This document shows, in pieces, positions 17,250-17,375 of a stretch of 64,000 bases of DNA. The number at the start of each line of letters is the position of its first letter. The stretch's first letter is position 1. A model generated the notes under the pieces. The model made no database searches, was not told the DNA's origin, and saw only the letters and a program-made list of their open reading frames with translations. The position numbers and the translations under genes are program-made. Origin of the DNA: Escherichia coli (GTDB taxonomy: Bacteria > Pseudomonadota > Gammaproteobacteria > Enterobacterales > Enterobacteriaceae); NCBI RefSeq assembly GCF_003018255.1, contig NZ_CP027440.1. One strand, 5' to 3'.

Positions 17250-17375
17250 CAGTTAACATGTTAACTGGCTGTCCGGGCATTTTTGCGGTTTTTATCTTTA
17301 TTATTCAGTTTGTTGCGTGGAAAAAATGTTAACAGGCTTTTTCAGCAAATGTTAACCAGGCAGCAGTTAACATTT
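17250..17375. promoter_or_regulatory. candidate cos/terminase-recognition region with five GTTAAC-containing repeats
   Basis: GTTAAC at 17252, 17260, 17328, 17351, 17366; two direct repeats AAATGTTAAC(A/C)AGG; between HNH gene and terminase small subunit. Confidence 0.4.

Follow-up and report, generated by a model that had tools for sequence, protein, structure and literature searches.

A conserved array of GTTAAC repeats, a candidate small-terminase recognition element, beside a predicted HK97-type cos site in a lambdoid Escherichia coli prophage

Five GTTAAC hexamers stand close together between an HNH endonuclease gene and the small terminase gene of an E. coli prophage. Do they belong to the packaging signal, which protein would recognize them, and how do they lie relative to the cut? 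The window analysed here, a 64,000-nucleotide stretch of E. coli DNA, carries a lambdoid prophage of the BP-4795/Stx type, and the locus is 92–98% identical to BP-4795, phage 2851 and many Stx1a/Stx2-converting long-tailed phages. Pfam matches fall in the order HNH-TerS-TerL, as an initial annotation of this DNA had stated. Specifically, the HNH endonuclease gene (16793..17158, plus strand; Pfam HNH, E = 6e-7; so annotated in BP-4795) lies directly upstream of cos, followed by the small terminase TerS (17447..18010, plus strand; Pfam PF03592 Terminase_2, E = 1.6e-8; N-terminal HTH; GTG start), the large terminase TerL (18007..19668, plus strand; Pfam TerL_ATPase, PF03354, and TerL_nuclease, PF20441), a protease-capsid fusion (19732-21669) and the portal gene (21881-24466). 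The HNH-TerS gap, previously given as ~290 bp, measures 288 bp from the HNH stop at 17158 to the TerS GTG at 17447. On its other side the HNH gene is flanked by a DUF3950 (YlcI/YnfO-family) gene (16551-16811) on the minus strand, which overlaps the HNH gene start by 19 bp within an otherwise rightward late operon.

The GTG at 17447 is preceded by a Shine-Dalgarno sequence, GGGAGG, at 17436-17441, and the same start is used in the RefSeq annotation of BP-4795. The ATG at 17381 was rejected as the TerS start, since its frame needs a 1-bp indel at 17400-17401 that is absent from most relatives. The window reads GG at these positions and most relatives GGG (AAAAATGG-CTGAAC); the GG puts ATG 17381 in the TerS frame and so lengthens the N-terminus by 22 codons, probably spuriously. 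The GG variant recurs in a few further copies, e.g. L139 (L numbers are our handles for individual loci).

Within the gap, GTTAAC occurs at 17252, 17260, 17328, 17351 and 17366, which confirms the five hexamers in two clusters that had been annotated. These are five of the 17 copies in the whole window, all within 120 bp, and uniform placement of 17 sites never gave five within 120 bp in 200,000 simulations. Because the repeat segment is AT-rich (36.5% GC vs 51.7% for the window), the gap itself was also shuffled with dinucleotides preserved. None of 5,000 such shuffles contained five or more GTTAAC, and none of 5,000 equalled the observed hexamer or octamer repetition.

The repeated unit is in fact an 8-mer, ATGTTAAC, present in five copies on strands −, +, +, + and −. 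The plus-strand copies start at 17258, 17326 and 17349, the minus-strand copies occupy 17252-17259 and 17366-17373, and neither strand of the 64-kb window holds any beyond these five. Sites 1 (−) and 2 (+) together form a perfect 18-bp palindrome, CAGTTAACATGTTAACTG, at 17250-17267, which is followed by a T-rich spacer (17268..17320) of conserved length (53 ±1 bp). Site 3 (ATGTTAAC, 17326..17333, plus strand) is preceded by an A-run from 17321; site 4 (ATGTTAAC, 17349..17356, plus strand) lies inside AAATGTTAAC at 17347-17356; site 5 (17366..17373, minus strand) reads GTTAACAT on the plus strand and marks the right boundary of the conserved module. Sites 4 and 5 are an inverted pair, AAATGTTAAC-N9-GTTAACATTT, with a 9-bp spacer. 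The direct repeat AAATGTTAAC(A/C)AGG of the initial annotation stood in part: the 10-mer AAATGTTAAC is repeated exactly, at 17324 and 17347 (sites 3 and 4), but the tails that follow the two copies, AGG and CAGG, are one base out of register. Centre-to-centre spacings of the five sites are 8, 68, 23 and 15 bp, with no simple helical phasing, and the T-tracts of the spacer, considered for intrinsic bending, are likewise without clean phasing.

Rfam gave no structured-RNA match at E ≤ 1. Promoters and terminators stayed at chance level, with two promoter matches vs 1.0 ±1.1 expected; the lone promoter-like match in the gap is weak and sigma-70-like, lies on the minus strand and is composed of the repeat motif itself. 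ArcA-type TGTTAA direct repeats with 11-bp spacing were tried and rejected, having two to three mismatches and the wrong spacing.

To locate the cut, we relied on relatives with known ends. A conserved core, GGACACCGCGCCCCCT|CTCACGCAGAG (17203..17229, plus strand), contains the cleavage site. The record of Lys8385Vzw, a virion-sequenced E. coli phage ~95% identical to the prophage, ends ...GGACACCGCCCCCCCT and starts CTCACGCAGAG..., a break corresponding to 17218|17219, and PhageTerm assigned this phage cos packaging with 3′ cohesive ends CGCCCCCCCT (PMC7946995). Acinetobacter phage fEg-Aba01 is a distant relative with a TerS N-domain homologous to that of the window TerS; its 10-nt 3′ ends, CGCCCCCCAT, were established by PhageTerm and a heat/anneal restriction gel (PMC7354433), and they align base for base with the window core (...GGACACCGCGCCCCCT|CTCACGCAGAGAAAAAATTCCC). 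By homology to these mapped ends, nicks are predicted at 17218|17219 on the top and at 17208|17209 on the bottom strand, with CGCGCCCCCT (17209..17218, plus strand) as the predicted 10-nt 3′ cohesive end and 17219 as the predicted left end of the virion. In the close family we found no phage record other than Lys8385Vzw that starts or ends at the cut; a scan of IMG/VR for contigs ending there was uninformative, since most such contigs derive from isolate genomes rather than virions.

The surroundings of the core are also conserved. A G-run, GGGGGGG (17167..17173, plus strand), bounds the conserved cos module on the left; 29 bp separate it from the core, and the same 29-bp spacing recurs in satellites and in Salmonella, Acinetobacter and HK97 layouts. 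HK97 itself shows the same layout, its G-run being followed after ~42 nt by GACCGCCGCCAAA|G, and its cut leaves a 10-nt 3′ overhang (PMC11331095). Downstream of the predicted cut, at +9 to +23, an A-tract block, GAGAAAAAATTCCCG (17227..17241, plus strand), is conserved in all relatives with a Terminase_2-type TerS. Collectively, these homologies place cos in the HNH-TerS gap, where the initial annotation had put it, with a predicted HK97-type cut leaving a 10-nt 3′ overhang, and the complete cos site of the prophage is best read as ~17165-17385. One positional claim failed, namely that the repeats flank the nick. The predicted cut lies 34 bp upstream of the first GTTAAC, neither between the two clusters nor within 17250-17375. 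As the mapped ends of the relatives correspond to 17218|17219, all five repeats are on the TerS side and none flanks the cut from the other side. Counted from the predicted cut, the GTTAAC array extends from +34 to +155 (the 8-mers from +32 to +155), and TerS starts at +229.

We then asked how strictly the array is maintained. The core pattern matched at least 120 IMG/VR contigs from very different phages, and a scan of IMG/VR by this pattern yielded at least 120 loci that fall into downstream classes with five, two, one or no GTTAAC; among 81 distinct sequences, no intermediate architecture with three or four sites was seen. In 35 distinct five-site copies, the invariant segments are 17251-17267, 17321-17333, 17347-17356 and 17366-17374, and 41 of the 100 non-hexamer columns in 17247-17376 vary. 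Every 8-mer of all five sites is kept in 33/33 distinct five-site variants, with spacing shifts of at most ±1 bp. The module is present in 1,275 of 5,426 complete E. coli genomes, in up to seven copies per genome, and many Stx1- and Stx2-converting prophages are among its carriers. In the PPompW prophages (L210 846-2304; PPompW_132418, LC567822), the IS110-family element ISEc20 abuts the cos G-run at a junction equivalent to window ~17170, with Q and tRNA genes upstream of ISEc20; these prophages keep the core and the repeats and miss the lysis genes and the HNH gene.

The array was also found in elements that have no terminase genes of this type. Two loci, L006 and L008, carry the core and all five sites without HNH, Terminase_2 TerS or TerL. 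Each is a small island with genes for a D5-type primase, SSB, PerC, capsid proteins resembling lambda E and D, and a Nu1-like protein, and the same island lies between tRNA-Pro and yejO in E. coli genomes (in the L131 copy, a tRNA-Ile gene is downstream instead of yejO). The Nu1-like (Rpp-like) gene of the island is flanked by two lambda-type cosN sequences; cos1, cos2 and Rpp are the architecture of EcCICFT073-type PICIs (PMC6092414; PMC6739421). By alignment, the shared DNA is a discrete cassette of ~220 bp with the G-run at its left end, and it finishes ~12 bp past site 5. It sits near the right end of the island, is carried by L128 (10462-10690; E. coli MS 21-1, NZ_CP146670), L129, L131, L006 and L008, and is lacking from the sister PICIs L130 and L132. 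About 50 of the 5,426 complete E. coli genomes contain the satellite version.

Comparison of the phage with four satellite copies, segment by segment, separated the sites from their surroundings. Core plus A-tract are identical at 40/41 positions, the palindrome with sites 1 and 2 at 16/17, and the segments of sites 3, 4 and 5 at 13/13, 10/10 and 9/9 respectively; the spacers are 38–62% identical (the T-rich spacer 62%), and outside the cassette identity is 24–33%. In total, 38/38 8-mer columns agree vs 55/92 other columns (Fisher p = 2.3e-7). As judged from these alignments, an element that needs packaging in trans has retained precisely these pieces, with unchanged spacing, and the repeats appear to be a strongly conserved, functional part of the packaging signal. 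We found no description in the literature of an HK97-type cos cassette in E. coli PICIs. We tentatively propose, at slightly less than even confidence, that the ~220-bp module is a self-sufficient, portable HK97-type cos, captured by a subset of EcCICFT073-type PICIs as a third cos beside their two lambda-type ones, that it enables direct packaging by long-tailed BP-4795/Stx-converting phages without Rpp-mediated redirection, and that its TerS-binding array evolved by separation of the DNA sites from the terS start codon.

Which protein reads the repeats? The PF03592 match of TerS (35.7 bits vs a cut-off of 26.1) covers the N-terminal part only, profile positions 1-56, and Pfam assigns the protein to Terminase_2, not to Phage_Nu1. 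A profile of 13 TerS relatives weakly matches five small-terminase HTH domains in the PDB (E = 0.0015–0.02), including those of the Pam5, SF6 and PaP3 small terminases (4zc3, 2cmp, 3zqp, 7joq). Across the site classes, the N-terminal 55 aa of TerS are 55–75% identical and its remainder 32–50%. In relatives whose TerS N-domain is homologous, GTTAAC or GTTAAA recurs in the same register. Acinetobacter-type relatives, with N-domains 36–45% identical, carry AAGTTAAA two or three times, the first GTTAA lying at +34 or +35; in fEg-Aba01 and L115 it is exactly at +34, as in the window prophage. In contrast, L011, L042 and L043 share the core, have an unrelated TerS and lack GTTAA, a negative class (core kept, TerS different, motif absent) of only two to three lineages; two of them, L011 and L042, also have homologous TerL (46–55% identity) and HNH proteins. 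The A-tract block tracks TerS type as well as the repeats do. In our best reading, the repeats are a cosB-like array recognized by TerS, with strict conservation, retention in satellites and a correlative association with the TerS HTH family all making them good candidate elements, as first suggested. We found no description of a GTTAAC repeat array at cos in the literature.

Relatives with fewer sites suggest where the array came from. In Salmonella FSL SP-016 and other compact relatives, the core is followed by GGAGGG-GT(T/A)AAC-(A/G)TG-TTA-ACA, and in one- and two-site relatives (e.g. L002 2590-2610; L017/L026, +30 to +50) GTTAAC overlaps the TerS Shine-Dalgarno spacer and start codon. By this comparison, the palindrome at 17250-17267 is probably a relic of an ancestral TerS translation start, and the five-site lineage appears to have uncoupled the sites from the terS start. 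A compact ancestor would have had one or two sites over the TerS ribosome-binding site and start codon, (A/G)TG-TTA-ACA; after duplication of the start region, the upstream copy would have kept the DNA sites and lost the Shine-Dalgarno sequence and coding capacity, and the downstream copy would have kept its coding function (GTG CTG ACA) and lost the sites, three further sites being added later. One or two sites suffice in the compact relatives, and for this reason sites 3–5 may be accessory. TerS binding in the compact relatives could also repress its own translation or transcription.

We therefore favour, as moderately probable, an explanation that combines an HK97-type cut in the core, the five 8-mers as a recognition array for the TerS HTH, and an origin by duplication of the start region. 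TerL, aided by the HNH protein, would nick inside the core, GGACACCGCGCCCCCT|CTCACGCAG, a step supported by homology, to leave the 10-nt 3′ overhang 17209-17218, and packaging would run from the left end at 17219 rightwards into terS. The five ATGTTAAC 8-mers would be recognition elements for the N-terminal HTHs of an oligomeric TerS of the Terminase_2 type, arranged as the palindromic pair (+32 to +49), the T-rich spacer, and then the direct site and the inverted pair (+108 to +155). Acting like lambda cosB, the array would anchor the terminase beside the cut, such that only phage or module-bearing DNA is packaged. Position agrees with this: like lambda cosB and the TerS site of HK97, the array is located between the nick and terS on the side packaged first. 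Several points count against this explanation: the small negative class, the equally good tracking of TerS type by the A-tract block, the sufficiency of one or two sites in compact relatives, the site spacings without simple helical phasing, and the Rpp/Nu1-like protein that EcCICFT073-type satellites also encode.

The reader of the 8-mers might instead be a factor other than TerS, such as TerL, the HNH protein or an architectural protein of the host by which cos DNA is bent or looped. The repeats would then still be cis-acting packaging elements, and the TerS site would be the A-tract block at +9 to +23. We regard this as unlikely. It draws on HK97, whose TerS occupies one 15-bp A-tract site (+15 to +29; PMC11331095), and on the conserved AAAAAATTCCC of the window at +12 to +22, present in all Terminase_2-type relatives; moreover, conservation and satellites demonstrate a cis requirement for the 8-mers but say nothing about the protein that binds them. 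However, HK97 TerS is unrelated in sequence, and its binding mode is thus not transferable. TerL or HNH as reader conflicts with L011 and L042, in which both proteins and the core are present and GTTAA is absent, while a host factor would have to be common to E. coli and Acinetobacter. The IHF consensus WATCAANNNNTTR does not occur on either strand of 17159-17446 with up to one mismatch, and the ArcA-like pattern fits poorly. The A-tract block could be the primary, or an additional, TerS site, because it tracks TerS type equally well and sits where HK97 TerS binds.

Two further explanations would remove the repeats from packaging. The overlap of GTTAAC with the TerS Shine-Dalgarno spacer and start codon in compact relatives, together with the weak minus-strand sigma-70-like match built from the motif, could mean that the sites are mainly a regulatory operator, e.g. 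for TerS autoregulation of its own transcription or translation. We consider this quite improbable, as here 75–195 bp separate the sites from the TerS start downstream, all five are retained in satellites that have no terS after them, and the promoter match is at chance level. Least probable is that the repeats are functionless leftovers from duplication of the TerS 5′ end (ATG-TTA-ACA) or part of a small hydrophobic 24-aa ORF (17258-17332; MLTGCPGIFAVFIFIIQFVAWKKC). The homology of sites 1 and 2 with the ancestral TerS start is clear, and the ORF exists: it begins with the relic start codon of TerS and terminates within site 3, and phage 2851 has an annotated 'putative secreted protein' in its HNH-TerS gap. 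Yet the sites are invariant and their neighbours variable, relics would not persist in satellites at exact spacing, and the ORF is truncated to 4 aa (L006, L008), frameshifted (L061, L125) or extended (L060) in copies that all keep the five sites. Conservation, the disrupted ORF copies and the satellite data thus already largely refute this possibility. The recognition array for TerS remains our preferred reading.

How does this array compare with known packaging signals? The cos site of lambda consists of cosN and cosB, the latter with R3, I1, R2 and R1, bound by gpNu1 and IHF. The prophage locus resembles it in having several short repeats in both orientations between the nick and the small-terminase gene, on the side packaged first, with a spacer that parts the proximal site from the distal sites, and in being copied, like the lambda signal, by PICI satellites (PMC6739421). 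It differs in that lambda makes a 12-nt 5′ overhang and needs no HNH protein, unlike the predicted 10-nt 3′ overhang and the HNH gene here; the lambda TerS is of the Nu1 family (winged HTH) rather than the Terminase_2 type, the motif sequence is unrelated, and the spacer here lacks an IHF consensus.

With HK97, the locus shares the order HNH, cos, TerS and TerL, a 10-nt 3′ overhang (predicted here) starting CGC, a G-run about 42–45 bp upstream of the cut, and an A-tract and the TerS site (putative here) downstream (PMC11331095). The HK97-type packaging first proposed accordingly holds for the position of HNH, the TerL family and, by homology, the type of cut, but not for TerS, which has no significant BLASTP similarity to HK97 gp1 (best E = 1.2); TerL itself is only 23% identical to HK97 gp2 (BLASTP, over 459 aa, E = 6e-12). 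HK97 gp1 reads one 15-bp site by threading DNA through its ring (PMC11331095), in contrast to the five 8-mer repeats and HTH-type TerS of the prophage. As the window TerS is not HK97-like, the single-site binding mode of HK97 cannot be assumed for it.

The small terminases of SF6/SPP1 (pac) and PaP3 (cos) have a homologous type of N-terminal HTH (PF03592). In the model for PaP3, a ~20-bp site is held at its ends by two neighbouring HTHs, which recognize repeated sub-sites (PMC7672466); by analogy, the 18-bp palindrome would fit such a grip, and so would sites 4 and 5 as an inverted pair. SF6/SPP1 differ in packaging by the headful mechanism, with pacL/pacR boxes that flank the cut, whereas here cleavage is predicted to be precise and all sites lie on one side; for PaP3, a comparable array has not been described. 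Also close are the two phages with mapped ends. Both share the core and have a 10-nt 3′ end nearly identical to the predicted one; Lys8385Vzw has the same five repeats, and fEg-Aba01 three AAGTTAAA repeats in the same register, with GTTAA at +34. The papers on Lys8385Vzw (PMC7946995) and fEg-Aba01 (PMC7354433) give the cohesive-end sequence and leave the downstream repeats unmentioned. The element is best read as a lambda cosB-like array beside an HK97-type cut, served by an SF6/PaP3-type HTH small terminase, and as a member of neither the lambda nor the HK97 TerS system.

Cohesive-end sequences had thus been published for a close and a distant relative; we found no earlier account of the repeat array or of the E. 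coli PICI cassette. Repeats beside cos that recruit terminase are textbook knowledge, and no concept is changed: this is an ordinary kind of element with previously undescribed details. With the exact cut and the likely TerS elements placed, the minimal cis signal that these phages need for packaging and transduction is delimited, and prophage and virion genome ends can be annotated correctly. Combining an HK97-type cut with a lambda-like array, the locus is a tractable case for studying how several sites are read by a small terminase of the HTH-ring type. The by-product of most interest is the satellite capture. The module accounts for the way in which some PICI satellites may travel with Stx phages.

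Two observations concern neighbouring genes. The portal protein (861 aa) has a long C-terminal extension of four near-identical tandem units of ~54 aa, encoded at roughly 23370-24050, with the unit DVRPMLEQMV.EAVSHIPVPRDGRDYDP.VLQKAVNDAVANIPQPADGKS.TPD; the units are also visible in the DNA as periodic repeated hexamers. Upstream, between Rz and the packaging module, a small ORF (16078-16419) encodes a TonB C-terminal domain with a lipoprotein-like N-terminus and looks like a moron.
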